From NCBI GenBank assembly GCA_035528575.1, contig DATKYK010000024.1, positions 66,420 to 130,419 on the forward strand: a stretch of DNA of 64,000 nucleotides, in the 5' to 3' direction. The notes beneath the pieces are model-generated. The model was not told the origin of the DNA. It made no database searches and saw only the letters and a program-made list of their open reading frames with translations. The position numbers were made by a program, and so were the translations under genes. Below are positions 1,284 to 38,277 of the stretch, one piece after another (position 1 is the stretch's first letter; each line of letters opens with the position of its first letter). This DNA is from Dehalococcoidia bacterium (GTDB lineage Bacteria; Chloroflexota; Dehalococcoidia; E44-bin15).

Positions 1284-1739
1284 ATGAGTGATGAACTAAC
1301 CGAGTTACTAGAGACAGCAGTTTACAAAGAGGTTGCTGCCGAGGCGTTCTACTCAGCTGGGCAGAACAATACCGACGATCCCGGGGCCAAGGCATTGATG
1401 AAAGAGCTGGCAGAAGAGGAGCGTCGCCACGCGCATACGCTGAAAGATCTAAAAGAGAGGGACTGGAAAAAGGGACAGTGGCGCAGGGAGAAGATACACA
1501 ATCTGATGATAAGTGAGTACCTGACAGGCAGTGACAAGCTGGAAGGGGCCGGCTTGCAGGGCACGCTCGTTACTGCCATGAAGCGGGAGCAGCATGCTGT
1601 GGAGTTCTACTCCCGGATGATGAGCGCCCTCCGTGATGAGGAGGTCAAACACCTTTGCGAGAGGTTAGTCCACGACGAGCTGAAGCATAAATACAGGTTG
1701 GAGGTATTGTACGACACCCTCTTCTATCAGGAAGACTGA
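1284..1739 (+). CDS. Rubrerythrin/ferritin-like diiron-domain protein.
   Basis: An E..H helix pair pattern (EEERRHAHTL ... EVKHLCERLVHDELKH) is present. A GAGGGA Shine-Dalgarno site precedes an internal ATG. Confidence 0.6.
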   Translation: MSDELTELLETAVYKEVAAEAFYSAGQNNTDDPGAKALMKELAEEERRHAHTLKDLKERDWKKGQWRREKIHNLMISEYLTGSDKLEGAGLQGTLVTAMKREQHAVEFYSRMMSALRDEEVKHLCERLVHDELKHKYRLEVLYDTLFYQED

Positions 1740-1934
1740 TCCTGAATGCCTTCTATCCGAAATCCCTAACCAAAATAAGAATCCCTCCAGTGGATACGAG
1801 CGAGATTAGAGACGAAAAAAGGTGATGCAGGAGGTGGGCATTAACATCACTGGCCGATCGCCACTAGCCCTTACTCCGATGATGAGAGAGGGTGATGGAA
1901 TTAACAGAAATCTAGCCCACAGATGGAGGCTACG

Positions 1935-2474
1935 ATGTCCAAGGAAGTCGCTACACTCGCCGGTGGCTGTTTCTGGTGTCTTGAGGCTATTTTTGATAAA
2001 TTGAATGGTGTGGAGCAGGTGACATCAGGCTATTCGGGTGGTACTGTGGTAAACCCATCTTATAGTGAAGTGTGTAGGGGAACAACAGGGCATGCCGAGG
2101 CGGTTCAGATCACCTTTGATCCCAAGGTAACTTCCTTTAGAGAATTGCTGGAGGTTTTCTTTTCCATACATGACCCAACGACATTGAATAAACAGGGGTC
2201 GGATATAGGAACCCAGTATCGCTCTGCGATTTTCTATCATAATGATAGACAGAAGGTAATTACTGAGCAGGTAATCGAAGAATTGAACGCGGCAAGTGTT
2301 TGGGATGCTCCGATTGTTACAGAGGTCACGCCATTTAGGTCTTTCTATCCTGCAGAGGATTACCACCAAGAATACTTCATGCAAAACGCTGAACAACCTT
2401 ACTGCCTTGCCGTGATTGCGCCCAAGGTAGAGAAGTTTCGCAGACTTCATCATAACAAGCTGAAATATTTGTAG
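1935..2474 (+). CDS. msrA: Peptide-methionine (S)-S-oxide reductase MsrA.
   Basis: The GGCFWC active-site motif is present. A GGAGG Shine-Dalgarno site lies 5 nt upstream of the ATG at 1935. Confidence 0.9.
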   Translation: MSKEVATLAGGCFWCLEAIFDKLNGVEQVTSGYSGGTVVNPSYSEVCRGTTGHAEAVQITFDPKVTSFRELLEVFFSIHDPTTLNKQGSDIGTQYRSAIFYHNDRQKVITEQVIEELNAASVWDAPIVTEVTPFRSFYPAEDYHQEYFMQNAEQPYCLAVIAPKVEKFRRLHHNKLKYL

Positions 2475-2653
2475 AGCTAGCGCCATTAAAATGCGGGTGG
2501 CTATTATCTGCAACTTAGGCTATCGCGCAGCGACAAGAGCAAGGGTAACAAGGTTGCAGGACAATATGAGGTAATGAAAACCTATGAAGTGGGAATGTTT
2601 TTGGTAACAAGATCAAGGTTTATAGATTAGATTTGCAGTGAGGAATCAGTATT

Positions 2654-5332
2654 ATGGCAAAAGACCCGATATGCGGGATGGAGGTAGATGAGAAAACCGG
2701 GCTTCGGCTACAGTACGAGGGCGAGACTTACTACTTCTGTAGCCCGGGCTGCCGAGATAAATTTCTCTCCCAAAAGGGCTTGCTAGAGCCTATATCTAAC
2801 GAGCCAAAGCCTTCCGAGGAGCAAGAAGCGCTCAAACATCATTTAGAGAGAGCCACCCTATATATAAAGGGCATGCACTGTGCCGCCTGCGCAGTTACCA
2901 TAGAGTATTCTCTGAAAAAAGTAACCGGGGTCTCCAAAACTGCGGTGAACTTTGCCACTGAGAGGGCGTACGTGGAATACGACCCAGCGAAAGCGACTAC
3001 TCAGGAATTGGAGCAGGCGGTCGAAAAGGCAGGCTACAGCGTGATCAAGGAAGAAGCCGAGACGCTCAATCTCAAGGTGATCGGCATGGATAATGCTCAC
3101 TGCGTGGGCACCGTCGAGGCAGCGCTCAAGGGGATCAAGGGTATACTCTCCAGCCAGCTTTTCACCAATGAAAGGGCAATAATAGCCTTCGACCCGGCAT
3201 TGACTACCCCAGAAGCTATTAAAAAAGCAATAAAGGACGCTGGCTATACCCCTGTGGCAGAGACTACCGTTGACCGCGAGAAAGAGGCGCGGCAGCGTGA
3301 TATAAAGACCCTTAAAATAAAGCTCCTGGTGGCGGCAATTTTCGCTCTCCCCCTACTTTACTTTGCTATGGGCCACCATGTGGGGCTGCCCCTTCCCTCC
3401 CTTACCGATGGGAGTATGGCCCTGATCCAATTGCTGCTCGCAACCCCTATTGTGGCCGCCGGTTACCAGTTTTACACTGTGGGGCTCAGGACGGTGGTGA
3501 AGAACCGCAGTGCCAGTATGGATACTCTCATCGCCCTGGGCACCGGCACCGCCTATCTTTGGAGCCTAGCCTCGTCCATTTTGATATGGAGCGGTAATCC
3601 CAATTATGGAAGAGATGACCTTTACTATGAAATAGCGGGGATGCTTATCGCGTTTATCCTGCTCGGCAGGCTACTCGAGGCCCTTGCCAAGGGGAGAACC
3701 TCGGCTTCTATCCGCAAGCTTCTCGAACTACAGCCCAAAACAGCACTGGTGGTTAGAGATGAGCGGGAGCAAGAGATCCCAGTGGAGGAAGTCATCATGG
3801 GGGATGCGGTAATCGTAAAGCCAGGGGGTAGCGTCCCAGTAGACGGGGTAATTCTGGATGGAAGCTCTTCAGTTGACCAATCGCTCTTAACCGGTGAGAG
3901 CATCCCGGTAGAGAAGAACATCGGTGACGAGGTTATCGGCGGCACGATGAATAAGGGCGGATGGATCAAGTTCAAAGCCACCAAAGTGGGCAAAAACACC
4001 GCGCTGGCCCAGATCGTGAGGCTAGTAGAGGAGGCCCAGGGAAGTAAAGCCCCGGTACAGCGGCTGGCCGATAGGGTATCGGCCTATTTTGTCCCCGCTG
4101 TTTTGACTATTGGCGTGGTTACCTTTCTCGCCTGGTATCTATCGGGGTCCGGGCTGGTCTTTGGCCTCACCGCCTTTATCGCGGTACTTATTATTGCCTG
4201 CCCCTGTGCCCTTGGCCTGGCTACGCCTACAGCGGTAATAGTAGGAACTGGTCTTGGGGCAGAGAATGGCATCCTCATCAGGGACGCAGAGACTCTGGAG
4301 TGGGCCTGCCAGGTAGATACCATCGTATTCGATAAGACAGGAACACTGACCAGAGGCAAGCCCGAGGTCACGGATATAATCCCGCTCTCCAATCCTCAAT
4401 CCACCGATGACGTCCTGAAGCTGGCTGCCGCGGCTGAGAAGCGCTCGGAGCACCATCTCAGCGAGGCCATCGTTAGCAAGGCTGAGGAAAGGGAAATAGC
4501 TATTCCAGAGGTAGAGAGCTTCCTCGCTATACCGGGCAAGGGTGTGGAGGCAAGATATAACGGTACATCCATTCTTGTGGCAAACAGGAAGCTACTCGCT
4601 GACAAAGGCATAGATACGTCGGCTGCGGAGGAAAGGATAAGACAACTGGAGGAAGAAGGAAAAACAGTGGTGCTGGTAGCAACGGAGGGCAGGGTTATTG
4701 GGATAATTGCAGTTGCGGATACAGCAAAGGATTTTGCCGCCGAGACAGTTGCTGGGCTCAAGCGCCGAGGGAAGCAGGTGATCATGATCACCGGAGATAA
4801 TCGGGGGAGTGCGGAAAGTATCGCCCACAACCTGGGTATCGATCGGGTGCTGGCAGAGGTTTTGCCCCAGGATAAAGCCGCTGAGATAAAGAGGCTCCAG
4901 GAGCAGGGACATTCAGTAGCTATGGTTGGCGATGGTGTTAACGACGCACCGGCTTTGGTTCAGGCTGATGTCGGTATCGCTATCGGATCGGGTACCGATA
5001 TAGCTATCGAGTCGGGAGGCATAGTTCTAGTGAGAGATGACCTTCGAGACGTAGTTCGAACCCTGGACCTGAGCTGTTATACTATGCGTAAGATCAAGCA
5101 GAACCTCCTTTGGGCTTTTATCTACAATACCACAGGTATCCCGATCGCCGCCGGGATACTATATCCCTTCACCGGATTTTTACTCAATCCAATAATCGCC
5201 GGAGCAGCAATGGCCTTCAGTTCAGTAAGTGTGGTCACTAATTCCCTGAGTATGAGAAGATACCGTCTGCAAGAAAGTTTTAAGGAGGATAAAGGCGATG
5301 AACGAACAGGAAGCACTAAGCCTGGCTATTAA
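2654..5332 (+). CDS. copA: Copper-translocating P1B-type ATPase with an N-terminal TRASH/YHS-like domain and two heavy-metal-associated domains.
   Basis: The protein has DPICGM (TRASH), GMHCAACAV, a CPC transmembrane motif, DKTGTLT and GDGVNDAP. Confidence 0.9.
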   Translation: MAKDPICGMEVDEKTGLRLQYEGETYYFCSPGCRDKFLSQKGLLEPISNEPKPSEEQEALKHHLERATLYIKGMHCAACAVTIEYSLKKVTGVSKTAVNFATERAYVEYDPAKATTQELEQAVEKAGYSVIKEEAETLNLKVIGMDNAHCVGTVEAALKGIKGILSSQLFTNERAIIAFDPALTTPEAIKKAIKDAGYTPVAETTVDREKEARQRDIKTLKIKLLVAAIFALPLLYFAMGHHVGLPLPSLTDGSMALIQLLLATPIVAAGYQFYTVGLRTVVKNRSASMDTLIALGTGTAYLWSLASSILIWSGNPNYGRDDLYYEIAGMLIAFILLGRLLEALAKGRTSASIRKLLELQPKTALVVRDEREQEIPVEEVIMGDAVIVKPGGSVPVDGVILDGSSSVDQSLLTGESIPVEKNIGDEVIGGTMNKGGWIKFKATKVGKNTALAQIVRLVEEAQGSKAPVQRLADRVSAYFVPAVLTIGVVTFLAWYLSGSGLVFGLTAFIAVLIIACPCALGLATPTAVIVGTGLGAENGILIRDAETLEWACQVDTIVFDKTGTLTRGKPEVTDIIPLSNPQSTDDVLKLAAAAEKRSEHHLSEAIVSKAEEREIAIPEVESFLAIPGKGVEARYNGTSILVANRKLLADKGIDTSAAEERIRQLEEEGKTVVLVATEGRVIGIIAVADTAKDFAAETVAGLKRRGKQVIMITGDNRGSAESIAHNLGIDRVLAEVLPQDKAAEIKRLQEQGHSVAMVGDGVNDAPALVQADVGIAIGSGTDIAIESGGIVLVRDDLRDVVRTLDLSCYTMRKIKQNLLWAFIYNTTGIPIAAGILYPFTGFLLNPIIAGAAMAFSSVSVVTNSLSMRRYRLQESFKEDKGDERTGSTKPGY

Positions 5333-5822
5333 AAGAGAAAGGGAGGCCCACCGCTACTATAGCGATGCTGCTGCCAAGACTGCCAATGAGAGCGGTAGGA
5401 AGATGTTATCATGGCTGGCATCGGAGGAGAGGGGACATATAAACATACTGGAGAAGCAATGGGAAAAGGTTAAGGAAGATGGAACGTGGCTTTCGGAAGA
5501 AGGTTATTGCGAATATGGTGATATATCTCATCCTATCGAATGCACGGAATTTCCTTCAGCCTCAGAGGTCAAGTTTAAGCTTACTGAGGATGCCCCGGAA
5601 CTGGATATTCTAAAGCAAGCCATAGCTGCAGAGAGACAGGCGACTTCATTTTACACCGGTCTTGCTAAAAATACCCCAGATCCAAGTGGCAAGGCCATGT
5701 TTGAGAAGCTCTCCAAGGTTGAGCAAGGGCACCTGGATCTGCTGGAAGAGGAATATGAGTGGCTGAGGAGATCGAAAGAATATTTCACGGTACACCGCTT
5801 TACCTTGCCCTCCTCCGCGTGA
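5298..5822 (+). CDS. Ferritin-like/rubrerythrin-family protein with two ferritin-like half-domains.
   Basis: An AGGAGG Shine-Dalgarno site precedes the start. ExxH-type motifs occur in both halves. The gene overlaps the copA 3' end. Confidence 0.6.
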   Translation: MNEQEALSLAIKREREAHRYYSDAAAKTANESGRKMLSWLASEERGHINILEKQWEKVKEDGTWLSEEGYCEYGDISHPIECTEFPSASEVKFKLTEDAPELDILKQAIAAERQATSFYTGLAKNTPDPSGKAMFEKLSKVEQGHLDLLEEEYEWLRRSKEYFTVHRFTLPSSA

Positions 5823-5845
5823 TTTCTCGGTGAGAGGAGCCCAAA

Positions 5846-6553
5846 GTGAATATATGGACTACTGCCAAGGGAAGCCATCATCCCTTAGCCAGGCTTGAGG
5901 GCAAACCGCTTGGCGGGGCCACTATGGAAATAGAGCTTGGGCCCAAGAATCGCGTGGGTGCGCACTATTTTCGAATAAACTTGCGGGATCAGTTCGGTAA
6001 CACAAGTCAGCCTCTATTACTAGCGCTGCACCACTCCGGTCCCTATCCCAGCTATAACTGGGTTGAGGTGATAAAGCTGGTAAAAAATATTATTCACACG
6101 GAACGAGAGGTTATACTCTCGGATGCTGAAATAGAACGCCTTTTTCATTATCTCTCTGACCTTATCCCGCCCGGCGGACACATAATGGTAGAATACGAGA
6201 GTGAGGAGCAGGCGGAGACCAGGCTCGCCATCGGGTGCGGCATTCCCCCGGTAGCCACACCTTTGGGCAGTATGCTATTTCGGGTGGGCTGTGGCGTGGC
6301 CTTCAAAGACTGGCATTTTGCCGAGGGAGGCAGCGAAGGCCCGCGAAAGTTACAGGGATATAAAGCGCTTCATGAAGATCATCGCCGTGCCCGGGCTGCT
6401 GAGATGGCAGCGGAACTTCGCTCCTTTCTCCTCAGGGAAATGCCACCTAGCTGTTGCCAACTTTGGGAAGCAGCCCAGGAGCGGGCATTGCAGATACTAA
6501 ATATCCTATCCACTGATGATCCTTCCTTGGCCATAGCGGGAGGGAAAACGTGA
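5846..6553 (+). CDS. Conserved hypothetical protein. The start is uncertain, with an alternative internal Met.
   Basis: It is a long ORF with an upstream GAGAGGAG Shine-Dalgarno site. No confident family was recognised. Confidence 0.45.
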   Translation: MNIWTTAKGSHHPLARLEGKPLGGATMEIELGPKNRVGAHYFRINLRDQFGNTSQPLLLALHHSGPYPSYNWVEVIKLVKNIIHTEREVILSDAEIERLFHYLSDLIPPGGHIMVEYESEEQAETRLAIGCGIPPVATPLGSMLFRVGCGVAFKDWHFAEGGSEGPRKLQGYKALHEDHRRARAAEMAAELRSFLLREMPPSCCQLWEAAQERALQILNILSTDDPSLAIAGGKT

Positions 6554-6626
6554 GGAGGAGAGACGCCAAGATCGCCTATTTTAGTTGCCGTAGGCCCATA
6601 GGAAGCTGAAAGGAGGAAATCACCCC

Positions 6627-6857
6627 GTGACTACCGCATCACCCAAGTTGATCGAGTATGACAATATCCGATGGAATGCCTTCTGGTGCAAGCGTTGTCA
6701 CATCTGTGTGGAGGCCTGTCCCAGGCAGGCACTGGAGCTAAAGGACGATGCCATCATGGAGATAGAAGGCCGTTGTGACCGAACCGGCCTTTGCCAGAGA
6801 CTCTGTCCCGACCTAGCCATCGAGGTAATCAAGCCCAGGTCCCAGGAGGGACAATGA
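6627..6857 (+). CDS. 2-oxoacid:ferredoxin oxidoreductase delta subunit (2x[4Fe-4S] ferredoxin).
   Basis: The sequence has CKRCHICVEACP ... CDRTGLCQRLCP. An AGGAGG Shine-Dalgarno site is present. It overlaps the alpha-subunit start. Confidence 0.8.
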   Translation: MTTASPKLIEYDNIRWNAFWCKRCHICVEACPRQALELKDDAIMEIEGRCDRTGLCQRLCPDLAIEVIKPRSQEGQ

Positions 6858-7903
6858 TGAAGCACCTGGTTCAGGGCAATGAAGCATTCTTCCTCGGCAC
6901 CCTAAAGGCAGGCGCAAGCTTCTTCGCTGGCTACCCCATTAGCCCATCAACAGAGGTCCTGGTCATGGCCGCGGAACAGTCTGTCAAGGATCCAAACTTT
7001 AGGTTCATCCAGAGCGAGGACGAACTGGCTGCCGCCAATGCCATTATCGGCGCTTCGCTGGCCGGTGCCAAGTCTTTTACCGCAACTTCCGGTCCAGGCT
7101 TCACCCTGATGCAGGAGGCAATCGGCTACGCTCACGAGGTGGAGGTGCCGACGGTATTTCTAAATATTCAACGGGTGGGGCCAGCCACGGGGATGCCCAC
7201 CATGCCAGCACAGCAGGATATTGTGCAGACAAATTATGGTAGCAGCGGTGACTACTATCCCCTGGCTTTCTATCCCAACTCAGTTGCCGAGTGCTATCGT
7301 TATGCCATCACTGCGTTTAACGCCGCAGAAGAATCGCTGTCGCCCGTTGTCCTGCTCAGCGACGCCTTTGTGGGACATCTGAACGAGGTGGTCGACCTCG
7401 ATGTCATTAAGTTAGACGTTATCCCGCGTACCAGGCCACCTCTGGGGACCGGGAAGCGGTATTTTACCGGCCTGGCCCACGATGAGGAAGGTAACCCGCG
7501 AACTGCCGATGCCGGGGTGTATCGAGAATGGCTTACCAAAGTCAAGGCCCGACATGAAAAGGTGGCAGCCCACTATAGTGACTACGAGTTCAGCGGAAAC
7601 CCGGCGAGCGATACGCTACTCATTTCGTACGGTATCGTGTCGCGGGTGGTTGCCCCGCTCGGTTCCACCTTCGCGCTATTTCGGCCGATACGCATGTTCC
7701 CTATGCTCGGCGATGAGCTTCGTAACCATGCTCAGGGCTACGAGAAGGTTGCGGTCATCGAAGCCAACGATGGCCAGTATGCCTGTCTGGTGGAGCGGGA
7801 GCTTAAGAGAAATGTGATCCACGTACCGCTACTCGGCGGGAGGATCAACCTGGAGCTGGCCAAGCAAGGCTTGCGGGAAAAGCTTGAACGGGAGGTGTCT
7901 TGA
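6854..7903 (+). CDS. 2-oxoacid:ferredoxin oxidoreductase alpha subunit.
   Basis: It has GYPISPSTE and TATSGPGF motifs. It overlaps the delta-subunit stop by ATGA. Confidence 0.85.
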   Translation: MMKHLVQGNEAFFLGTLKAGASFFAGYPISPSTEVLVMAAEQSVKDPNFRFIQSEDELAAANAIIGASLAGAKSFTATSGPGFTLMQEAIGYAHEVEVPTVFLNIQRVGPATGMPTMPAQQDIVQTNYGSSGDYYPLAFYPNSVAECYRYAITAFNAAEESLSPVVLLSDAFVGHLNEVVDLDVIKLDVIPRTRPPLGTGKRYFTGLAHDEEGNPRTADAGVYREWLTKVKARHEKVAAHYSDYEFSGNPASDTLLISYGIVSRVVAPLGSTFALFRPIRMFPMLGDELRNHAQGYEKVAVIEANDGQYACLVERELKRNVIHVPLLGGRINLELAKQGLREKLEREVS

Positions 7904-8637
7904 TGTTCAAGGATCTTATTAAACTGGACACTTTGCCCACCAGTTGGTGTCCTGGCTGTGGGCTGGGGCAAATAATGATCCAGTTGGCGATGGTGATGGA
8001 TGAACTGGGACTTAATTATACTAACAGCACGGTTATATCCGGAGTGGGCTGCACCGGCAGGCTTGCCGGCTACATGAATGTCGATGGAGTATATACCTTA
8101 CATGGCCGCACGCTGCCCGTTGCTGAGGCTGTGAAGCTGGTGAACCCGGATCTCAAGGTGATAGTGGTCTCCGGAGACGGCGATCTGGCCAGCATCGGCG
8201 GCAACCACCTGCTGCATGCTACCCGGCGTAACCCGGACCTGACCTTGCTCTGTAATAATAATAATGTCTACGCCCTCACCGGAGGTCAGGCGGGGCCGAC
8301 AACTCCCCGCGACACCAAAACGGTGAGTTCACCTGCCGGCGCTGCCTATGATCCGGTAAATCTACAGAACCTGATGAAAGCCGGTTCTAGGTACTTCTAC
8401 GCCAAGACAACTGTATACCATCAACTCCACCTCCGCAACTGCATGAAGGAGGCGATTGCCTGGCCAGGCTTTGCCTTTATAGATATCGCCTGCCACTGCA
8501 TTGAGAACAACGGGCGCCGGCTGGGGTTCAACTCATCGTATGAAATGCTGCAGCACTTCCGCAGAACATATAAAAGGGCACCTGACGGTACCGAGACCCT
8601 GAGTCCCGAGGAAATCGGGATCGTCCGCCGCGGGTAG
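7900..8637 (+). CDS. 2-oxoacid:ferredoxin oxidoreductase beta subunit (TPP-binding).
   Basis: It has WCPGCG and GDGD TPP-binding motifs. A GGGAGGTG Shine-Dalgarno site precedes the start. Confidence 0.9.
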   Translation: MMFKDLIKLDTLPTSWCPGCGLGQIMIQLAMVMDELGLNYTNSTVISGVGCTGRLAGYMNVDGVYTLHGRTLPVAEAVKLVNPDLKVIVVSGDGDLASIGGNHLLHATRRNPDLTLLCNNNNVYALTGGQAGPTTPRDTKTVSSPAGAAYDPVNLQNLMKAGSRYFYAKTTVYHQLHLRNCMKEAIAWPGFAFIDIACHCIENNGRRLGFNSSYEMLQHFRRTYKRAPDGTETLSPEEIGIVRRG

Positions 8638-8650
8638 AAAGGAGTCCGCA

Positions 8651-9223
8651 ATGGTAAAGGTCTTCATCTCAGGAGAGGGGGGTCAGGGAGTGCGGGTGAT
8701 ATCTCATAGCCTGGCAACACTGCTGGCCAACCTCGGTTACGAGGTAAGCCTGCTCTATGATTACGACTCAGCAGTAAGAGGCGCTATGAGCGTAGCCTAC
8801 CTCACCTTCGATAAAGAGCCCATCGCCAACCCGGTGATTCAAGATGCCGATATCCTGCTTAAACTCTCCAACAAGGCAGAGGGACTTCACGCAGTAAAGA
8901 CGGTGTGCCAGACGGGACTCTGCACCGATGAGGAAATCCCCTTCAGCAGGCTGGGAATAGAGCAATTCGGCAGAGAGATCTTCGGCAACATGATTGCACT
9001 GGGACGCTTAATGGCCCTGGTAGATGTTAAAATATCTGAAGAGGAGTTGGCCAACGTGCTCCCCCTTAAATACAGGGAGGAAAACCTGAGTGCGGTCCAA
9101 TTTGGCTATCATCTAAAGGAGGAGGACCTGGAACGGGGGCTCAACTCCAGGAAGAAACGCGAGTTTGATTTCTCCAGTAAGCAGCCTGGTGAAATAGGAC
9201 TAGAAGCTGAAAGTCAGGCCTGA
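8651..9223 (+). CDS. 2-oxoacid:ferredoxin oxidoreductase gamma subunit.
   Basis: The GEGGQG motif is present. An AAAGGAG Shine-Dalgarno site precedes the start. Confidence 0.85.
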   Translation: MVKVFISGEGGQGVRVISHSLATLLANLGYEVSLLYDYDSAVRGAMSVAYLTFDKEPIANPVIQDADILLKLSNKAEGLHAVKTVCQTGLCTDEEIPFSRLGIEQFGREIFGNMIALGRLMALVDVKISEEELANVLPLKYREENLSAVQFGYHLKEEDLERGLNSRKKREFDFSSKQPGEIGLEAESQA

Positions 9224-9330
9224 CCAGACAGCATCGACCACGTTCTTAATATCAATTAGATTCGAGCACGCTTGTTCGTGAAAATATTTGCCTTGGTGAC
9301 CCAATATCCGAATAATTAAGGAGGAAGTAC

Positions 9331-11292
9331 ATGATTGATGATCGCGGATCAGACAGCGCCAGCTCTCTACCTACAGGTGCGCGTATGTGGCCATCAAAGC
9401 GCTATGCAGAAATCCACCAGCGCTCACTAGAGGACCCTGAGGGATTCTGGGCCGAGGAGGCGCGAAAGCTGGACTGGTACAAGACATGGGATCGCGTCCT
9501 TGACTGGGAGCCACCGTACGGGCGCTGGTTTGTCGGAGGTATGCTCAACGCCAGCTATCAGTGCGTTGACCGCCATGTACAGACATGGCGCAGGAGCAAG
9601 GTGGCGATATACTGGGAAGGGGAGAAGGGAGAGACCAGGGTGCTGAGCTATTCCACCCTCTTTCGGGAAGTCAACCGTTGCGCCTCGATGCTGAAGAATC
9701 TCGGCGTCAAGAAGGGGGATGCGGTCGCCCTCTATCTCTCCATGGTACCCGAACTCCCTATATTCATGCTCGCCTGCGCCCGCATAGGTGCTGTGCATAC
9801 GGTGATCTTCTCGGGATTCAGCTCCCAATCCATAGCGGACAGGGTCAACGACATAGGGGCAAAAGTGATCATCACCTCCGATGGCGCCTACCGCCGCGGC
9901 AAGCTCCTTGGGCTCAAGGAGATAGTCGATGAGGCGGCTAAATTGTCGCCTGTCATTGAGAAGATAGTCGTGGTTAAAAGAACAGGGGAGACGGTTCCTA
10001 TGCAGAGAGGAAGGGACTTCTACCTTTCAGACCTGCTGGACGAGGCCGATAGGATGGTTAAGCCCGAGCCGATGGAGTCTACTCATCCGCTATATATACT
10101 CTACACCTCAGGGACAACGGGAAAGCCCAAAGGTGTAATACATGGCACGGGAGGCTACCTTGTCTACAACCACTCGGCATATAAGTGGGTTTTCGATATA
10201 AAGGAGGAGTCGGTCTACTGGTGCACCGCCGATGTGGGATGGGTAACCGGCCACAGCTCCATCGTGTATGCTCCCCTTTCCCATGGCGCAGCCATTGTCC
10301 TGTACGACGGGGCTCCTGACTTCCCCACTGTGGACAGGTGGTGGGATATCGTGGAAAAGTACGGCGTCAGCATTTTCTACACGTCACCAACGGCAATACG
10401 CATGTTTATGCGCCATGGCGAGGAGATGCTGCAGAAACACGACTTCTCCAGCCTTGAGCTTCTGGGTAGTGTCGGCGAGCCGATAAACCCGGAGGCGTGG
10501 TACTGGTATTACAACAACATAGGTCAAGAGAGATGTCCCATCGTTGATACCTGGTGGCAAACGGAGACCGGGGGCACAATGCTATCACCTACACCGGGGA
10601 TTGAGTCAATGCCCCTTAAGCCGGGCTCTGCAGCTTTCCCATTACCAGGAATCGATGCAGCCGTTGTTGATCCCGAGGGAAACGAGCTTCCACCAAATCA
10701 GACGGGACTGCTAATAATAAGGAAGCCCTGGCCCGGCATGCTTCTCGATATATATGGCGACCCGCAGCGTTATAAGGATACCTACTGGTCACGCTTTCCC
10801 GGGTCATACTATACCGGCGACTTCGCTATGCGGGACGAGGATGGCTATTTCTGGCTCCTGGGTAGAGCCGATGAGGTGCTCAAGGTGGCGGGACATCGTA
10901 TCGGCACAGCGGAATTGGAAGATGCCGCCATATCACATCCCGCTGTGGCTGAGGCTGCCGTAGCCAGCAAACCGGATGAGATAAAAGGGGATGCTATTGT
11001 CCTCTTTATTACCCTCAAAGCTGACGTTTCGCCCTCACCTGATCTGAAGAAGGAGATCGGCAAGCACCTGCGTACTCTCGTCGGGCCTATCGCTACCCCT
11101 GAGGAGGTCTACTTCGTGGAGTCGCTTCCTAAGACGAGGAGCGGCAAAATCATGCGTCGCGTTCTCAAGGCAATAGCCATGGGTCAGAGCCCGGGCGACC
11201 TCACTACCCTCGAAGACGAGGCATCAGTAGAAGAGGTGATAAAGGCATACGAAACCATGAAGAAGGTATCTGAAACCGCTAAAGATGATTAA
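9331..11292 (+). CDS. acs: Acetyl-CoA synthetase (AMP-forming).
   Basis: It has the YTSGTTGKPKGV AMP-binding motif and is 653 aa. An AGGAGG Shine-Dalgarno site precedes the start. Confidence 0.9.
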   Translation: MIDDRGSDSASSLPTGARMWPSKRYAEIHQRSLEDPEGFWAEEARKLDWYKTWDRVLDWEPPYGRWFVGGMLNASYQCVDRHVQTWRRSKVAIYWEGEKGETRVLSYSTLFREVNRCASMLKNLGVKKGDAVALYLSMVPELPIFMLACARIGAVHTVIFSGFSSQSIADRVNDIGAKVIITSDGAYRRGKLLGLKEIVDEAAKLSPVIEKIVVVKRTGETVPMQRGRDFYLSDLLDEADRMVKPEPMESTHPLYILYTSGTTGKPKGVIHGTGGYLVYNHSAYKWVFDIKEESVYWCTADVGWVTGHSSIVYAPLSHGAAIVLYDGAPDFPTVDRWWDIVEKYGVSIFYTSPTAIRMFMRHGEEMLQKHDFSSLELLGSVGEPINPEAWYWYYNNIGQERCPIVDTWWQTETGGTMLSPTPGIESMPLKPGSAAFPLPGIDAAVVDPEGNELPPNQTGLLIIRKPWPGMLLDIYGDPQRYKDTYWSRFPGSYYTGDFAMRDEDGYFWLLGRADEVLKVAGHRIGTAELEDAAISHPAVAEAAVASKPDEIKGDAIVLFITLKADVSPSPDLKKEIGKHLRTLVGPIATPEEVYFVESLPKTRSGKIMRRVLKAIAMGQSPGDLTTLEDEASVEEVIKAYETMKKVSETAKDD

Positions 11293-26154: not shown

Positions 26155-27850
26155 TTTAACCATCGGAATCGTGGGCGCTGGCGGCGATGGAGTAGTGGTG
26201 CTGGGCAGCCTGCTGCAAAGGCTTGCTGCCTGGCAAGGGTACTTCAGCCAGATGCCCCGCTATTATGGAGCCCAGATCAGGGGTGGAGGCTCAGCGGTAA
26301 AACTAGGTCTCGATGGTAGATGTCTCTCCCTACCCGAAGACAGTCTGGATATCTTGGTATGTTTTAACTGGGAAAAATATCTGGAGTTTGAGCACGAGCT
26401 GGAACTAAAAGGAGAAAGCCTGGTACTTTTCGAAAATAATCCCTCAACCGAATTCAATTTACCTGAGACTTCCTATCAGGTCGATTTTTCCAAGAGAAGT
26501 CACGAGGTAACCGGCTCCACCATAGATAAAAATATCGTGGCGCTCGGCGTATTACTTAGAATACTGGCCCTTGACGAAGACCAGGTGAAGATAGCGATTG
26601 ATGAGGATGAAGAGCTGAAACTATTGAAGCAGAATATACCGGCTCTCGAAGCGGGAGGGCAACTATTTACCGATTTCTCTTTTCCCGAGCTACGATTATC
26701 ACCAGCACGGGATAATTCCACCAAGCTGATTATGCATGGTAATGCCGCCATGGCGCGAGCAGCGATCCGTGCCGGTTGCCGGGTATTCTTTGGCTATCCC
26801 ATCACACCGGCAGCAGAAATTATGAATGAAATGCAGCTGGAGCTCTCCCTTGGAAAGGGTGTTTTTCTTCAGGCGGAGGATGAAATCGCTTCATCCGGGA
26901 TGGCTCTCGGGGCTTCACTAACCGGTGCAAAAGCAATGACCGCCACCAGCGGTCCAGGATTTGACCTCATGACCGAGATGCTGGGCTTAGCCACAGCCGC
27001 TGAGATACCGTTGGTGATTATCGATGTTCAGCGTTGTGGACCGTCCACGGGAATACCCTCCAGGTCCGAGCAATCAGACCTCAACCATGCCATCTACGGT
27101 GGTCATGGTGACGCCCCAAGGGTAGTTATTGCTCCCTACGACATGGAGGGATGTTACCGCTTAGCTATAGAGAGCATCAACATCGCCCAGCAATTTCAGA
27201 CACCGGTTATTCTCCTCTCCGACCAGTATCTAGGACAAACCTTTATTTCCACAAGCGATGAGTTTTTAAGAAAATACTACCCCGCCGAGAGCGCAAAACG
27301 TGCCACAAACACCCTTGATGAATATTATCGCTATAGATTAACCGAGGACTCTATTTCACCCATGGCAGATGTTGGTAGTGAAGGACTGGCATATCAAACC
27401 ACTGGCCTGGCTCACAACGAGAAGGGCGAACCATCTTTCGATTTCGAGACCAATCAAATAATGCACCTAAAAAGGTGGAGCAAGCTCATACCACTCTGCC
27501 ACCGGGATGAGCTGGTAAAGGTTTTAGGAAAAGAAGAATCAAGCAGGGGAGTAATAACCTGGGGCTCCTCCGCCCAGGTGGTTCTGGAAACAGTTAAAGA
27601 CCTGGGACTACAGGACACGATTAAGATATGCATTCCCGAGCTAATTCACCCCCTACCGGAGAGAGTCAAGGGGTTCATAAAATCGACAGAGAAAATGCTG
27701 GTGATAGAGATGAATTACTCTGGGCAACTTCATCGTTACCTCCGCTCTCAACTAGATTTACCCAAGTCAACCGAAATTTACGCCAGAGCCGGCGGTCAAA
27801 CCTTCCGGCGGAAAGAGCTGGCTGGTCCCATAACGGAGTTAACCAGGTGA
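26144..27850 (+). CDS. 2-oxoacid (2-oxoglutarate-type):ferredoxin oxidoreductase, fused gamma-alpha subunit (KorA-like).
   Basis: An N-terminal gamma domain (IGIVGAGGDG) is followed by an alpha domain (GYPITPAAE, TATSGPGF). Confidence 0.85.
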   Translation: MRDSLTIGIVGAGGDGVVVLGSLLQRLAAWQGYFSQMPRYYGAQIRGGGSAVKLGLDGRCLSLPEDSLDILVCFNWEKYLEFEHELELKGESLVLFENNPSTEFNLPETSYQVDFSKRSHEVTGSTIDKNIVALGVLLRILALDEDQVKIAIDEDEELKLLKQNIPALEAGGQLFTDFSFPELRLSPARDNSTKLIMHGNAAMARAAIRAGCRVFFGYPITPAAEIMNEMQLELSLGKGVFLQAEDEIASSGMALGASLTGAKAMTATSGPGFDLMTEMLGLATAAEIPLVIIDVQRCGPSTGIPSRSEQSDLNHAIYGGHGDAPRVVIAPYDMEGCYRLAIESINIAQQFQTPVILLSDQYLGQTFISTSDEFLRKYYPAESAKRATNTLDEYYRYRLTEDSISPMADVGSEGLAYQTTGLAHNEKGEPSFDFETNQIMHLKRWSKLIPLCHRDELVKVLGKEESSRGVITWGSSAQVVLETVKDLGLQDTIKICIPELIHPLPERVKGFIKSTEKMLVIEMNYSGQLHRYLRSQLDLPKSTEIYARAGGQTFRRKELAGPITELTR

Positions 27851-28665
27851 GGAAAACCGCTGACTACAGGACAAAATTGAAGCCCGTCTGGTGCCGGGGC
27901 TGCGGTAATTTCGGCATACTTAGCGCCCTCACCAGAATAGTGCTGCCTGACCTTGGGATACCCAAACATAAAACTCTCATTGTTTCCGGTATCGGTTGTT
28001 CATCAAGGATCCCCGCTTATGTTGACAGTTACGGCATCAATGCTCTCCACGGGCGGGCGGTGCCAATTGCACAGGGAGCAAAACTGGCCAGTCCTGAACT
28101 AACAGTGCTAGCTATAGGCGGGGATGGTGATTTATTCAGTATTGGAGCAGGACATCTTCCCCATGTGGTAAGGAGGAACATCGATATAACCTGTATCATG
28201 GTCAATAACTTTGTGTACGCCCTGACCAAAGGCCAGATCAGCCCTACCACTCCTCATCTGGAAAGGGGTGAAAGTCCGTTTCTATCCTGGCAACTCTATC
28301 CGCCAGTAGACCCAATGCTAGATATGCTAAGCTACAATGTTTCCACGCTGTCAAGCTTTATTGCCCAGGGAATTGCTACCAATGTCCCCCATCTCGCCGG
28401 GCTAATAGGTGAAGGGATTAAACACAAAGGGTTTTCCTTCATCCTCGTGCTGACTCCCTGTGCTACCTTCGATCCTCCGTTTCTATTCAGCCTACTGAAA
28501 GAGAGAGCAAGCTACCTGAGAGAGGGAGAACCGGTGGAGTTGCCAGATTCGTCAAAAGAGAAGCCATGGCTCCACGATCCCGACAACATCAATCTAGCCC
28601 TGAGGCTCGCTGAGAGCCCCTTATTGGAAAAGCCATATTTGGGAGTTTTTTTCCGCGGTAGATAA
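27847..28665 (+). CDS. 2-oxoacid:ferredoxin oxidoreductase beta subunit (KorB-like).
   Basis: It has WCRGCG and GGDGD motifs. The GTG start overlaps the korA stop. Confidence 0.85.
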   Translation: MRKTADYRTKLKPVWCRGCGNFGILSALTRIVLPDLGIPKHKTLIVSGIGCSSRIPAYVDSYGINALHGRAVPIAQGAKLASPELTVLAIGGDGDLFSIGAGHLPHVVRRNIDITCIMVNNFVYALTKGQISPTTPHLERGESPFLSWQLYPPVDPMLDMLSYNVSTLSSFIAQGIATNVPHLAGLIGEGIKHKGFSFILVLTPCATFDPPFLFSLLKERASYLREGEPVELPDSSKEKPWLHDPDNINLALRLAESPLLEKPYLGVFFRGR

Positions 28666-29004
28666 GACCGGGTAAACTAGACCCAAAATCCCGCTTCCTG
28701 TTGTAATTAACCACATCTTTGACTATTCCCCACCATATTAAAAGCTCGACAAGCTTAATCCTCGTCTATCTAGTTTTTTCATCTGGAGAATTTGCGCCAT
28801 AGGAATGCTAAAAAGAATCGCATGGCAAACTTAGCCTAGGGTATGGCTCTAAACTGCCAACTCGTGTGTGATTGGAGCAGCGGATTGATGGACTGATATC
28901 TCGATGACTATACTTTTACTACCCATTTACTACTGCCTGCCCTCATCATTGAGCCTAACATCCCTGCGACTCTTTAAACTTCAACCAATGTCATAGAGAT
29001 TAGT

Positions 29005-29553
29005 TTAAAGAGTAAAAGTATCCCATATCCTCCACCTCCCTATAGCAACGGGAAAGGCCAATAGAGTGATAATAATTAAGAAGACACCTCCCTGCCATTT
29101 TTCGTCAAATAGGATTACTGTACCGATAATAGTGAGACAAATGAGTAAAACTAATACTAGCGAACGGTACCTATGGGACGCTTGACTAACAAAAACCAAT
29201 AGAATTACTGCGAACCACGCTAACCCAATCCAGAATAAAGAATGAAATATAATGCCCTCAACTTCTGAAAAGCCTCCTATCCAACTAATAATGAAAGCTA
29301 ATAAGAATATTTCTAATGATATCAGTGATACTCTTGTTCTGTAGCGCCAATTATTTAACCAATTTGCGAAATGATAACACAGAACAGCCGACATGAGGAT
29401 TATTGCAAATGATAATGCAATCCATGCCAACACTATACTGTAAATATCCAGTTCGCCACGTGCCAGTAACGTAGCTCCTATTCCAAACCAGAGGATGCCA
29501 ACTCCTAGTGGACTAAAGCGTTCTCGTTCCTGTTTCGTTAGTTCATCATCCAT
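29005..29553 (-). CDS. Multi-pass membrane protein (about 5-6 transmembrane helices), hypothetical.
   Basis: It consists of hydrophobic helix segments and lies 94 bp downstream of the nuclease-like gene on the same strand. The region is AT-rich. Confidence 0.55.
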   Translation of the reverse strand: MDDELTKQERERFSPLGVGILWFGIGATLLARGELDIYSIVLAWIALSFAIILMSAVLCYHFANWLNNWRYRTRVSLISLEIFLLAFIISWIGGFSEVEGIIFHSLFWIGLAWFAVILLVFVSQASHRYRSLVLVLLICLTIIGTVILFDEKWQGGVFLIIITLLAFPVAIGRWRIWDTFTL

Positions 29554-29646
29554 TTCATAAACACCAACGCCATAATTTATTAATTCTAATCTTTATAGTT
29601 CGAGCTTATCATAGTAACGGTCAATACTTCGGTTGTTCTAGTGGCG

Positions 29647-30249
29647 TTATTTATTATGAGGTTGCATAGATTGTCTTACTAGCTCATCGACAGTCTGGGC
29701 ACCTTTAGGTATCACTATCCAATCATTAAGGTGTTTGGGATATGCATGATCTGATTTTGGATACGCTACTTGGAAGTTTCCACCGTAGTAATTTGCTCCT
29801 GTAAATTGCCATTCTAATTTCTCAAGTTCTTTAATACTATTTAAGAAGGATTTACTTGATTTAACGTCAATTAACCAGACTGGTGTTCGATTTTCCTTAC
29901 TGGGATACAGTATAAGAAAATCCGCATTCACTTGAGGAGCTACACGCTTGCCATCTACTATAAGCAACCTCGGAACAACTTCAAAAATTGGTACAATTTC
30001 CAAATCGATGGGGCCTTCCTGTGGCATTTCCATCCATCCCTGTAGAACAAACCAAGTGCCCTGTCTATATAAGCAAACCTGCTTTATTACACAGTAATAA
30101 AATAAGGCCTCATAAAACACACCATTCAGTCTCGGGAAGTGCTGCTTCAAATTGGGATTATTTACTATCTCGTTCCAGCGCTTTCGTAGTTCGCTGTAGA
30201 TATTATCACCCTTACCATTTTGTACTAGCTGGTTAGACCAGTCTACCAA
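29647..30249 (-). CDS. Hypothetical protein with a putative PD-(D/E)xK nuclease-like core (ADFLIL ... LIDVKSSK).
   Basis: The ORF is in the AT-rich island. The motif assignment is tentative. Confidence 0.45.
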   Translation of the reverse strand: MVDWSNQLVQNGKGDNIYSELRKRWNEIVNNPNLKQHFPRLNGVFYEALFYYCVIKQVCLYRQGTWFVLQGWMEMPQEGPIDLEIVPIFEVVPRLLIVDGKRVAPQVNADFLILYPSKENRTPVWLIDVKSSKSFLNSIKELEKLEWQFTGANYYGGNFQVAYPKSDHAYPKHLNDWIVIPKGAQTVDELVRQSMQPHNK

Positions 30250-30627
30250 CTCAAATTAATGTTTAATATAACCGAATAGCATTACCTTCAAGTAGTTATA
30301 ACAATCCCAGAACTTCCCTAAGCCTGATTTTGGCATTCTCTTATCATTCGCAAATTCCCACATGATCTTCACTAATCGTCTATATAACTTGAAATCGGGA
30401 TTTCTCTGGGACTATTATAGCACTCTACAAATAGAATCATAATTTAATAGGCCTCGAAGTTCGTATTAGGTTTTGCAATTAGCTAGGCTAACCACGTCAC
30501 GCAGGCTACCCGATAATGGGTGGCCCCTTCTCTTTTAACCACAGCATTGACAGCCAAAGCTATAAGAAGTATTATCACACCCGCAAGCAACGCTCAATGT
30601 TGATAAACTCTAAAAGGAGTTAATTGG

Positions 30628-31512
30628 ATGCCACTGTTTAACATTGACCAGGGAAAAGCCAAAACTATTCAGACGAAGGAATTTTCTAACGAAGCAGAAC
30701 TTCAAACACTATTCGATAAGAATCTAGAAGAGATTACAGGTGTTCGTCTGATAGCGAGCCAATTCCCCATTCCCAATGGGCGTATAGATAGTTTGGGTAT
30801 AGATGAGCACAATGTTCCCGTCGTAATTGAATACAAGTGGGGTCACGACCCTGGAGCGATAATACAAGGTTTATTCTATCTACAGTGGCTAACACAAAAC
30901 CGCAAAACATACGAGCTATTGGCAAAAGAGAAATTTGGACCTATAAAAGTCAACTGGTCCTCTGCGCCAAGGCTATTGATAATAGCAAAGAGTTATGACA
31001 TTAAAGAGTTGTCTGCAACTGATATGGTATTACCTTCAGTAGAACTTATGAGGTATTCTTTCTATGGGAATCTCCTCAGCATTGAAGATGTTACAGTACC
31101 TAGAAAAATAAAGCTCCCCAAAGGGGCAGAACCACCAAAAGAAGAGGTAGTAGAGAAAACTATTGAGGATATTATCGAGAAAGCTTCGCCCGAATTGAAA
31201 GGTATATTTTATGAGTTACGCAATAGAATCTTGGAACTTGGCGATGAAGTCCGTGAAAAAGTCGGTGGTTGGTACATTGATTATCGAAAAACCTCTACAT
31301 TCGCTACGATATTACCTCAGTCTAAGAATAATCGACTTGTTATTTACATCAAAATGGGCGATAAGAGAATTGGAGACCCTAAAAGATGGTCATCACAGAT
31401 CCCTACAAGTTGGAGATATGGCAAATTAAATACTCAATTTAATATTATCCAGGAAGACCAGCTCAACTATGCGATGCAATTAATACGACAAGCATACGAA
31501 TATGTCCCCTAG
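30628..31512 (+). CDS. DUF91/NucS-like PD-(D/E)xK nuclease-domain protein with a C-terminal domain of unknown function.
   Basis: The motif GRIDSLGIDEHNVPVVIEYKWG...QGLFYLQW matches the GRIDLLxxDxxGxxVVIElK..Q..Y signature of NucS/DUF91 RecB-like nuclease domains. Confidence 0.6.
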   Translation: MPLFNIDQGKAKTIQTKEFSNEAELQTLFDKNLEEITGVRLIASQFPIPNGRIDSLGIDEHNVPVVIEYKWGHDPGAIIQGLFYLQWLTQNRKTYELLAKEKFGPIKVNWSSAPRLLIIAKSYDIKELSATDMVLPSVELMRYSFYGNLLSIEDVTVPRKIKLPKGAEPPKEEVVEKTIEDIIEKASPELKGIFYELRNRILELGDEVREKVGGWYIDYRKTSTFATILPQSKNNRLVIYIKMGDKRIGDPKRWSSQIPTSWRYGKLNTQFNIIQEDQLNYAMQLIRQAYEYVP

Positions 31513-31662
31513 TGTAATACCCCCATAAAAATGGTGTACTTCAGATACATAGTTACTATTAGACCAAATTTCACCCCAATGGCGCCCTGTAAAACCTCAA
31601 GCTATCCTCAAATGTAACCGACCTGGCATATCGCTGCACCATCTCCAGGCCTTAAACACGAT

Positions 31663-32106
31663 TTATCCCAACTTCTCTCTATAATGCGTAAGGCAATCCT
31701 CAAAGCTTATAGATGCCGTGTATCTCTGCACCATCTGTAGGGATTCCCAACCACCAAGCCTTGCTAAACCTTTTCTATGAAGTCTACAGGCAAAGCCCCT
31801 TCTGAAGCTGTGAGGGTTATAACGAATCCCTGTTTTATCTTCGAGCCTGCGGAGGAGCATTTTAATCACTCGTTAGTAAACAAACTTACCATTTCCTAGC
31901 TGAGGTCGACTTAAGAATTGGTTAATACCTTCGGGGTTTAAACTGTAGCTGTAAGCGAAATTAGTGAGGCAATACTCATAAAGCTGTTTGGTGCTTTGTC
32001 TTAGTTGTGATTCCTTTGAGCAGAGGAATTTGTTAACAATTTCTGTTAACAGTGGATAACTATTTTGTATTTGATTTCTGGAGCGGGTGATGGGATTCGA
32101 ACCCAC
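31663..32106 (-). pseudogene. Decayed tyrosine recombinase/integrase. A 77-aa N-terminal piece and a 68-aa catalytic C-terminal piece are separated by a stop. The N-terminus reads through the tRNA-derived att repeat.
   Basis: The C-terminal piece has HSFRRGFA...LGGW...VQRYT (H/R/Y catalytic residues). The total length is far short of a full integrase. A GTG start lies inside the 46-bp repeat. Confidence 0.6.
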
Positions 32107-32123
32107 GACCCCTTGCTTGGGAA
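32078..32123. repeat. 46-bp direct repeat identical to the 3' portion of tRNA-Gly at 38202-38247 (att-type integration scar).
   Basis: An exact match of ctggagcgggtgatgggattcgaacccacgaccccttgcttgggaa was seen by eye. The sequence diverges immediately afterwards. Confidence 0.8.
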
Positions 32124-38191: not shown

Positions 38192-38202
38192 GTTTTACTA
38201 GC

Positions 38203-38277
38203 TGGAGCGGGTGATGGGATTCGAACCCACGACCCCTTGCTTGGGAAGCAAGTACTCTACCGCTGAGTTACACCCGC
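38203..38277 (-). tRNA. tRNA-Gly (anticodon CCC) with genome-encoded CCA.
   Basis: The reverse complement folds as a cloverleaf with acceptor GCGGGTG/CACCCGC, anticodon loop TTCCCAA and T-arm GGTTCGAATCC. Confidence 0.85.

Follow-up and report, generated by a model that had tools for sequence, protein, structure and literature searches.

A presumed tRNA-Gly(CCC) island remnant in a Dehalococcoidia genome, with an intact candidate defence nuclease of the PDC-S18 family, a disrupted nuclease-like gene and a membrane ORFan

The window analysed here, a stretch of 64,000 nucleotides from a Dehalococcoidia bacterium, reaches its lowest GC content (0.376-0.403) at 29-32 kb, the part that an earlier note on this DNA had already singled out as the most AT-rich. 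GC values at 200-bp resolution limit the low-GC tract to 28,700 to 32,100, and it is flanked by the stop codon of a 2-oxoacid:ferredoxin oxidoreductase gene on one side and a copy of the 3′ half of a tRNA-Gly on the other. Three open reading frames are found exactly where that note had placed them, and will be referred to in the following as gene A, gene B and gene C (Table 1). These ORFs, like the six hydrophobic segments of A, the low GC content and the integrase remnant, go beyond what chance would produce. They had been proposed to form a candidate defence module, in which a nuclease-like protein (B) is paired with a membrane partner (A) and accompanied by a second, NucS-like nuclease (C).

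Table 1. Coordinates of the features described, in positions of the window.
Feature	Position	Strand	Remarks
Low-GC tract, proposed eroded integrative island	28666..32077	.	GC 0.39; from the oxidoreductase stop codon to the tRNA-Gly copy
Gene A	29005..29553	-	182 aa; six hydrophobic (TM-like) segments
Gene B ORF	29647..30249	-	200 aa; C-terminal 84% of a PD-(D/E)xK-like protein
Severed 5′ part of ancestral gene B	30250..30363	-	ATG at 30363-30361, 35 codons, then TAA at 30258-30256
Promoter-like site	30547..30575	+	TTGACA-17-TATTAT, 11/12; consensus match only
Gene C	30628..31512	+	294 aa, intact; NucS/EndoMS-like PD-(D/E)xK domain ~1-155, DUF5655 179-292
Second tyrosine-integrase C-terminal tail	31571..31651	-	out of frame (GLEMVQRYARSVTFEDSLRFYRAPLG)
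Integrase remnant	31663..32106	-	two ORFs in one frame, stop between them
att-like repeat	32078..32123	-	exact 46-bp copy of tRNA-Gly(CCC), anticodon loop to 3′ end; identical to 38202-38247
Intact tRNA-Gly(CCC)	38203..38277	-	3′ part (38202-38247) is the second repeat copy

The tRNA-Gly repeat lies immediately upstream of an integrase remnant, which opens within or just past the repeat and has the same orientation. In this remnant an N-terminal piece runs directly into the end of the catalytic domain (~65 residues, HxxR…RY); its Pfam match is to the C-terminal part of Phage_integrase (E 1.9e-7), in agreement with the integrase remnant noticed earlier. As the whole remnant amounts to ~140 aa, a large internal deletion is indicated. 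A repeat of the 3′ part of a tRNA next to an integrase gene of the same orientation, together with a deviant GC content, is also what is seen in tRNA-targeting islands with tyrosine integrases. In contrast to typical islands of this kind, the integrase is fragmented here, the repeat is not present on both sides, and the two repeat copies enclose neither the integrase nor the cassette. The 6 kb between these copies contain no integrase, and a search for a third copy near the left end, at ~28.7 kb, gave nothing above noise. Likewise, a general repeat scan revealed no convincing flanking repeats, and an Rfam scan of 28-33 kb detected no RNA family. Because there are just two repeat copies, with the cassette outside their interval and the left end unmarked, the history of the island can only be reconstructed indirectly: we infer that the 28.7-32.1 kb tract is an eroded integrative island that was acquired horizontally.

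In the case of gene A, six hydrophobic segments of ~19 residues each were computed, consistent with the five to six transmembrane helices claimed before. Like the two other ORFs, it is longer than any ORF obtained when the 3.4-kb tract was shuffled 500 times with its dinucleotides preserved (maximum 164 aa; none of at least 182 aa). A search of 5.8 billion proteins matched the identical sequence alone, and Pfam, PADLOC, NCBIfam and PHROG returned no match. Gene A is an ORFan specific to its lineage that encodes a membrane protein of six helices, and nothing connects it to gene B. A match to DUF2070 membrane proteins was discarded, since its 13.5 bits (E 0.023) fall short of the cut-off of 30.

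The reading frame of gene B, one of the supposed pair, is broken at 30256-30258 by a TAA stop; homologues carry Ser or Arg codons at this position. The ancestral gene had 238 codons. Its 35-codon 5′ part is homologous to the N-termini of two related proteins (P0002 and P0003), the flanks of the TAA are colinear, and the ‘TTG start’ of the 200-aa ORF coded for an internal Leu before the gene was broken. The same 200-aa ORF was called in a separately assembled contig that has 2 mismatches to the window over 15,791 bases. Through this nonsense codon gene B has lost a conserved N-terminal helix and is either inactive or at any rate truncated; a shortened product may arise from an internal start codon.

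Regarding the putative nuclease core of gene B, conserved residues are E47, D110, D128-V-K130 and Q160, corresponding to a motif E…D…DxK; a comparison of 29 relatives shows V129 without exception, and D110 and K130 each in at least 90% of them. The structural model (pLDDT 85) has the element order αβββαβ (H41-69, E84-87, E111-114, E124-129, H139-154, E157-164), in which D110 opens β2 and D128-x-K130 lies within β3, i.e. the core, the acidic β2 residue and the (D/E)xK of β3 that characterize the PD-(D/E)xK superfamily. The Foldseek lists are made up mostly of Hjc, RecU, Cas4, TnsA, restriction enzymes and UL24, with weak statistics for each single match (best E 2e-3 to 2e-2, and 2e-2 at best against the PDB). 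Core and motif are shared with minimal nucleases of the archaeal Hjc, RecU and Cas4 type, which stand at the top of these lists. Gene B has in addition a helical domain at its N-terminus, and most of its relatives end in a CxxC…CxxC zinc ribbon. No sequence-family match was obtained in Pfam, NCBIfam, PADLOC or PHROGs, and a sequence search of solved structures gave nothing significant for gene B or gene C. A relation to RT-Protease_XI was rejected (E 0.03). Overall, motif and modelled fold support a PD-(D/E)xK-type core in an ORF that is itself incomplete, and the ancestral protein would be predicted to act as a nuclease.

The gene B family is rare, with 8 matches in 5.8 billion proteins and 44 representatives in 1.84 billion, and no homologues in IMG/VR, the PLSDB plasmids or PHROGs. 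To describe its surroundings, 32 loci were fetched (27 from metagenomes, 1 from a genome, 4 from look-ups; ~22 non-redundant), the neighbours were compared to A and C by BLASTP, and all neighbours were then clustered. A co-occurrence of the pair across genomes, suggested by the earlier note as a check, was not seen: in the 31 other fetched loci (~22 non-redundant) no protein resembling A or C was found, and clustering gave no conserved neighbour family, duplicate contigs aside. A Pfam and PADLOC scan of 78 neighbours yielded three AAA_15 ATPases and a few restriction-modification (R-M) genes alongside housekeeping genes, purine genes included, with no recurrent partner among them.

These data bear directly on the possibility of a two-gene system of the abortive-infection type, in which B would be the nuclease or sensor and A the multi-pass membrane effector, possibly together with C. 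Genes A and B point the same way, and the 93 nt that separate them contain no predicted terminator, so that co-transcription is possible; B has a nuclease fold, A has its six TM-like segments, and the setting is that of a horizontally acquired island. Nevertheless, such a system is very unlikely: A is an ORFan in the 5.8 billion proteins, neither an A-like nor a C-like neighbour accompanies the family in the 31 other fetched loci, and the gene downstream of the closest intact homologues encodes an unrelated secreted-type protein of 184 aa. In addition, B carries a nonsense codon in the window, and neither A nor B is matched by a PADLOC model.

A different origin for gene B would be an orphan type II restriction endonuclease that lost its methyltransferase; such an enzyme would be toxic on its own, and its inactivation by a nonsense codon would be expected. 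The PD-(D/E)xK fold with its D…DxK motif and the rarity and fast divergence of the family, typical of restriction endonucleases, are compatible with this origin, as is one homologue (L034) that directly follows the gene of an Eco57I/TaqI_C-type N6-adenine methylase on the same strand. There is also a weak profile match to the nuclease domain of BpuSI (E 0.5), which appears in the Foldseek lists as well. But a methylase adjoins a gene B homologue in just one of the ~22 non-redundant loci and is not adjacent to the closest intact homologues (L002, L003 and L017); many members have instead the zinc ribbon and stand beside ABC-type ATPases. We therefore consider this origin improbable. On some contigs members of the family share an operon with an AAA_15 ATPase of the ABC type (NsnB/AriA-like), a HerA-like ATPase or an Eco57I-type methylase. 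It is conceivable, though on the whole unlikely, that the B family represents a new defence nuclease family, either stand-alone or coupled to an ATPase, whose copy in the window was recently killed. More remotely, gene A might be a lineage-specific membrane effector that was recruited to it.

In the case of gene C, the picture is different from the earlier statement that none of the three genes matches a named system. While A and B are unmatched by PADLOC, gene C belongs to PDC-S18: residues 2-291 align to positions 22-321 of the 365 of profile PDLC04946 (E 1.4e-69), a match that runs end to end with the same architecture, and PDLC04945 is matched as well (E 9.8e-51). Pfam detects the DUF5655 domain (E 4.5e-12). 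More than 2,000 homologues have the same two-domain architecture and size, and an identical protein is annotated as deriving from a Dehalococcoidia MAG. The motif GRID(54)…IE(68)YK(70)…Q(80)GLFY(84) is invariant or nearly so in 120 homologues, which upholds the NucS/DUF91-like signature of the earlier note. Upstream of the gene, at ~50 nt, lies the promoter-like site of Table 1; the overall number of such sites is not above chance. In the model of gene C (pLDDT 89.7), the top Foldseek match is EndoMS (5gke_A, E 2e-5, prob 1.00), and further matches include the Shedu nuclease SduA (prob 1.00) and FokI. The structural check proposed before thus recovered nuclease folds for both B and C, the matches of B being the weak ones.

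This top match would also fit a housekeeping repair endonuclease of the NucS/EndoMS type, acting in non-canonical mismatch repair rather than in defence. Gene C and NucS/EndoMS (PDB 5gke, 2vld) have the fold of the nuclease domain and the motif D…ExK…Q…Y in common, Pfam NucS_C (PF01939) is weakly matched (19.8 against a GA of 24), and the closer homologues stand amid metabolic genes. However, gene C scores 15.9 bits with the NucS equivalog model NF003270 (cut-off 216) and 15 bits with NF002876 (cut-off 252). The structural alignment covers only the nuclease domain (~130 columns): the N-terminal DNA-binding domain of NucS is missing from gene C, and the remainder of gene C is the C-terminal DUF5655, which is absent from NucS. 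Further points against a repair role are that family members are carried by plasmids, turn up in two phage records and lie within type I R-M operons, and that gene C itself is part of the low-GC island. Altogether, a repair enzyme has a slim chance of being the right description.

Gene C may also be compared to Shedu. SduA (DUF4263, PDB 8ps5) is a stand-alone defence nuclease in which a NucS-like PD-(D/E)xK domain is combined with a regulatory domain, and gene C is likewise a two-domain protein that superposes on it with an rmsd of 3.5 Å over 140 columns. Compared to SduA, the two domains come in the opposite order, the nuclease domain of gene C being N-terminal, and its second domain is DUF5655; no match at E ≤ 1 was obtained against the SduA models of PADLOC or the DUF4263 family of Pfam.

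PDCs are defined by their embedding in BREX, DISARM or type I R-M systems, and the 145 PDCs, PDC-S18 included, are candidates (Payne et al., bioRxiv 10.1101/2024.01.29.577857). Literature searches found nothing on PDC-S18 and just an unrelated genome note on DUF5655, and the supplements of the PDC paper gave no text match. The closer homologues of gene C (L012-L015) stand alone amid unrelated metabolic, non-defence genes, and the neighbours differ among these and three plasmid loci, as befits a single-gene candidate. Since homologues occur alone in unrelated contexts, nothing ties gene C functionally to A or B. One relative is embedded in the order hsdM-hsdS-DUF5655-hsdR on a Cupriavidus plasmid (NZ_CP038637) and another adjoins a type I R-M system on a Rhizobium plasmid. 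As relatives are repeatedly found within or next to type I R-M operons, gene C may serve as a back-up defence against phages or plasmids, with the reservation that embedding is seen in distant relatives only, whereas gene C of the window is not embedded in a defence system but lies in the presumed tRNA island remnant of a Dehalococcoidia MAG. Of the three genes, C alone is both intact and backed by a family, a known candidate defence family, with a putative defence role and a predicted nuclease activity. What is left of the defence setting described in the earlier note is the low-GC island beside an integrase remnant and this recognised candidate; the nuclease-membrane module is not supported.

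Taken together, we consider it likely that the tract is the remnant of an element integrated at tRNA-Gly(CCC) and that the three genes are independent cargo at differing stages of decay, not one system. The element would have integrated into the tRNA-Gly(CCC) of a Dehalococcoidia genome and then eroded to the present 3.4-kb tract. Gene C would act alone as a DNA endonuclease, with D54, E68 and K70 binding metal and Q80 and Y84 completing the site. Its DUF5655 α/β domain may bind DNA or a ligand and so gate the nuclease, much as a sensor domain gates the nuclease of Shedu SduA. It could be argued that the tract in its entirety is decaying and without function, with gene C non-functional though intact and gene A a leftover or spurious ORF, given the fragmented integrase and second integrase tail, the nonsense codon in gene B and the ORFan status of gene A. 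There is little likelihood of this, as gene C is full length, retains all catalytic and family-invariant residues and has a well-placed promoter-like site, and the ORF of gene A is longer than any obtained by shuffling.

In conclusion, the closeness of genes inside an AT-rich island should not be taken as evidence that they form a system. For the field little changes, in that one more example of the PDC-S18 candidate nuclease, now from Dehalococcoidia, is added, in what is probably a small tRNA-Gly island caught mid-decay. The models provide a structural argument that PDC-S18 may consist of a NucS/Shedu-like nuclease joined to DUF5655, with D54, E68 and K70 as predicted catalytic residues. Finally, the rare and unannotated gene B nuclease family is described here for the first time, by its motif, its predicted fold, its zinc ribbon and its occasional ATPase and methylase neighbours.

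ORF calling returned the three genes of the AT-rich cassette, here called A, B and C, with the positions, strands and lengths that the earlier note had read from the sequence, and each is longer than the longest ORF (164 aa) seen in 500 dinucleotide-preserving shuffles of the tract. The cassette also lies, as had been claimed, in the most AT-rich part of the window, with a GC minimum of 0.376-0.403 at 29-32 kb. At 200-bp resolution, the low-GC tract extends from about 28,700 to about 32,100 and starts directly past the stop, at 28665, of a 2-oxoacid:ferredoxin oxidoreductase gene. Two other assemblies of this locus, each from another source, match the window at 99.987% across 15.8 kb (L001) and at 100% across 5.7 kb (L011), and NCBI annotates a protein identical to C in a Dehalococcoidia MAG. 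As a side observation, the mechanical ORF of the oxidoreductase β subunit overlaps the upstream α-subunit gene by ~220 bp; since the gene call on L001 has 272 aa, the true start is probably internal.

Features in the window and in loci carrying B or C relatives
Feature	Coordinates	Strand	Remark
A	29005..29553	-	182 aa ORF
B	29647..30249	-	200 aa ORF
C	30628..31512	+	294 aa ORF
Oxidoreductase β subunit	27628-28665	+	mechanical ORF, 345 aa
Second integrase C-terminal tail	31571-31651	-	GLEMVQRYARSVTFEDSLRFYRAPLG; out of frame, directly after first tail SLQMVQRYTASISFEDCLTHYREKLG
Tyrosine integrase pieces	31873..32106, 31663..31869	-	Phage_integrase, E 1.9e-7
tRNA-Gly(CCC)	38203..38277	-	repeat copy 38202-38247 covers anticodon loop to 3′ end
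L005, operon with B homologue	7068-10786		also on L006-L010
L016, archaeal B homologue and downstream genes	1303-7869		JANZKB010000035.1
L034, methylase and B homologue	2-2426		co-directional
L045, DUF5655 gene	82385-83317		NZ_CP038637.1

The earlier note had proposed a defence system in which a nuclease-like B is paired with a multi-pass membrane partner, A. B-family loci were gathered from look-ups, one genome scan and one metagenome scan, which gave 32 loci including that of the window, about 22 of them non-redundant. When A and C were compared by BLASTP with every ORF of ≥60 aa in the collected loci, A- or C-like ORFs occurred only at the window's own locus, and all-against-all clustering gave no neighbour family common to the B loci beyond duplicate contigs. 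Within this collection, B is thus paired outside the window neither with an A-like membrane protein nor with C. With no A-like neighbour in the 31 other loci, and with B itself interrupted by a TAA codon, the nuclease-plus-membrane system was not borne out.

The neighbours of the B homologues are of several types. In the case of the closest intact homologues (L003, L004, L017), guaA lies before the gene and an unrelated 184-aa secreted-type protein after it; in the case of L002, the neighbours are hypothetical proteins, a small SNase and a LexA-like gene. Some copies of the distant zinc-ribbon branch (L005-L010) are the last gene of an operon; the genes before them encode a 348-aa protein, then an AAA_15/AAA_21 ABC-type ATPase (NsnB/AriA-like) and a protein of 205 aa. 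An archaeal copy (L016, Ca. Culexmicrobium) stands upstream of a HerA-like ATPase. On L034, a 240-aa homologue comes directly after an Eco57I/TaqI_C-type N6-adenine methylase gene; this is the sole such case seen and could be an R-M-like pairing. The remaining copies adjoin housekeeping genes. Altogether, these varied neighbours indicate that the B family is loosely tied to defence or mobile contexts and has no fixed partner.

The four-gene operon is conserved among the metagenome contigs L005-L010. Its zinc-ribbon B homologue has 261 aa, its 348-aa protein has a weak transglutaminase-like match, and on L005 the adjoining genes are DUF1156 and DUF499; by its appearance, this would be a so far undescribed operon of the defence type. 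In the Ca. Culexmicrobium thermophilum MAG, three further genes, all co-directional with the B homologue (244 aa), stand downstream of it; their products have 211, 634 and 1092 aa, and the longest carries a HerA/DUF87 ATPase domain.

B itself matched nothing in Pfam, NCBIfam, PADLOC or PHROGs. Its family is rare, with 8 matches among 5.8 billion proteins and 44 representatives among 1.84 billion cluster representatives in a profile search. The homologues have 240-270 aa, the additional length being N-terminal, and the distant branch also carries an extra C-terminal CxxC…CxxC zinc ribbon. Upstream of the apparent TTG start, which is an internal Leu codon common to the intact homologue P0002, the frame of B continues and reads MWEFANDKRMPKSGLGKFWDCYNYLKVMLFGYIKH, a stop, then FELVDW…; along this stretch it is colinear with P0002 and P0003 at their N-termini. 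The stop is a TAA (30258-30256) at a position that holds a Ser (AGT) or Arg (CGG) codon in the homologues. B is thus a gene of 238 codons (30363..29647), the first 35 of which precede the nonsense codon. The identical ORF was called on L001, which was assembled separately.

Conserved positions in B are E47 (YEALFY), D110 (ADF), D128-V129-K130 (IDVKS), Q160 and P164. In the predicted structure (pLDDT 85, pTM 0.82), E47 is on a long helix followed by β-strands, D110 opens β2 and DVK lies in β3, the canonical PD-(D/E)xK arrangement. Foldseek gave no match below 1e-3 against PDB and BFVD, yet its lists consist almost entirely of PD-(D/E)xK proteins: Hjc (prob 0.93), RecU, Cas4 and tRNA-splicing endonuclease, as well as TnsA, HincII, BpuSI, MspI, herpesvirus UL24 and phage resolvases. 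The putative PD-(D/E)xK core is supported at the superfamily level only, a specific family not being assignable. For intact B, a metal-dependent nuclease activity is predicted; the window's copy is a pseudogene and most likely dead.

A has six hydrophobic stretches of ~19 residues each and no family match; an assignment to DUF2070 was rejected (E 0.023, far below cut-off). It is an ORFan, its sole match among 5.8 billion proteins being the same sequence, called in truncated form in another assembly of the locus.

The island setting beside an integrase remnant was confirmed. An exact 46-bp direct repeat links 32078-32123 to 38202-38247. The minus strand reads full tRNA, ~6 kb of genes, tRNA 3′-half copy, directly after it the integrase remnant, then C, B and A. 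In the remnant, an N-terminal piece shares one frame with the final ~65 residues, from which a stop separates it; most of the catalytic domain is gone. The two C-terminal tails are left over either from two separate integrases or from a local duplication. The ~6 kb between the repeat copies has normal GC, encodes PIG-L, GNAT, GT4, FemAB-like, β-lactamase-fold and DinB proteins and contains no integrase; no third repeat copy was found at the left GC boundary. The most economical reading would be that elements integrated at tRNA-Gly in succession and that the low-GC cassette is the older one, by now eroded; the 6-kb interval may be the product of tandem integrations at a single tRNA.

In the case of C, the earlier note had recognised no named system, and this does not hold: C is a further member of an already known PADLOC candidate family, PDC-S18 (full-length match, E 1.4e-69), and is as such a listed defence candidate. 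Residues 179-292 match Pfam DUF5655 (E 4.5e-12) and residues 22-89 give a sub-threshold NucS_C match. Among >2,000 relatives found, nearly all have 289-301 aa and the same architecture; in 120 homologues, E68, K70, Q80 and Y84 are invariant and D54 nearly so. The AlphaFold model (pLDDT 89.7, pTM 0.85) has two domains separated by a disordered linker (161-172). Its N-terminal domain resembles EndoMS/NucS (5gke_A, E 2.1e-5, also 2vld; prob 1.00) and the Shedu nuclease SduA (8ps5_A, prob 1.00, rmsd 3.5 Å), with further matches to FokI, Card1 and HamA. The predicted nuclease fold stands. C falls far short of the NucS equivalog models (15.9 bits vs a cut-off of 216). Some weaker matches are to small α/β proteins (among them the MotA DNA-binding domain, type III secretion chaperones, DUF1801 and frataxin); judged by their size, we take these matches to concern the C-terminal domain.

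The 145 PDC families are 'phage defence candidates', picked for members embedded in BREX, DISARM or type I R-M operons (bioRxiv 10.1101/2024.01.29.577857). This pattern was reproduced with distant C relatives (about 28-30% identity): a Cupriavidus plasmid has the order hsdM-hsdS-DUF5655-hsdR, and on a Rhizobium plasmid the relative adjoins hsdMSR; near a Staphylococcus plasmid copy, R-M is absent. On the Cupriavidus oxalaticus plasmid (L045), the DUF5655 gene lies between hsdS, which it overlaps by 4 bp, and an hsdR-like helicase, a textbook 'embedded' arrangement for this family. The closer homologues (64-65% identity) stand alone among unrelated, mostly metabolic neighbours, which makes C a stand-alone gene. 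Full-length DUF5655 proteins of the C family (about 28% identity) are also encoded in two short phage records that lack annotation (OR850898.1, MT836554.1), so the family occurs on phage-like DNA too.

Of the three components, only C gives reasonable grounds for proposing a working mechanism. It would be an Mg²⁺-dependent NucS/Shedu-type DNA endonuclease, single-chain and probably oligomeric, in which the DUF5655 domain may bind nucleic acid or a signal and control access to the active site. The family context suggests a role for C as an accessory to R-M-type immunity.
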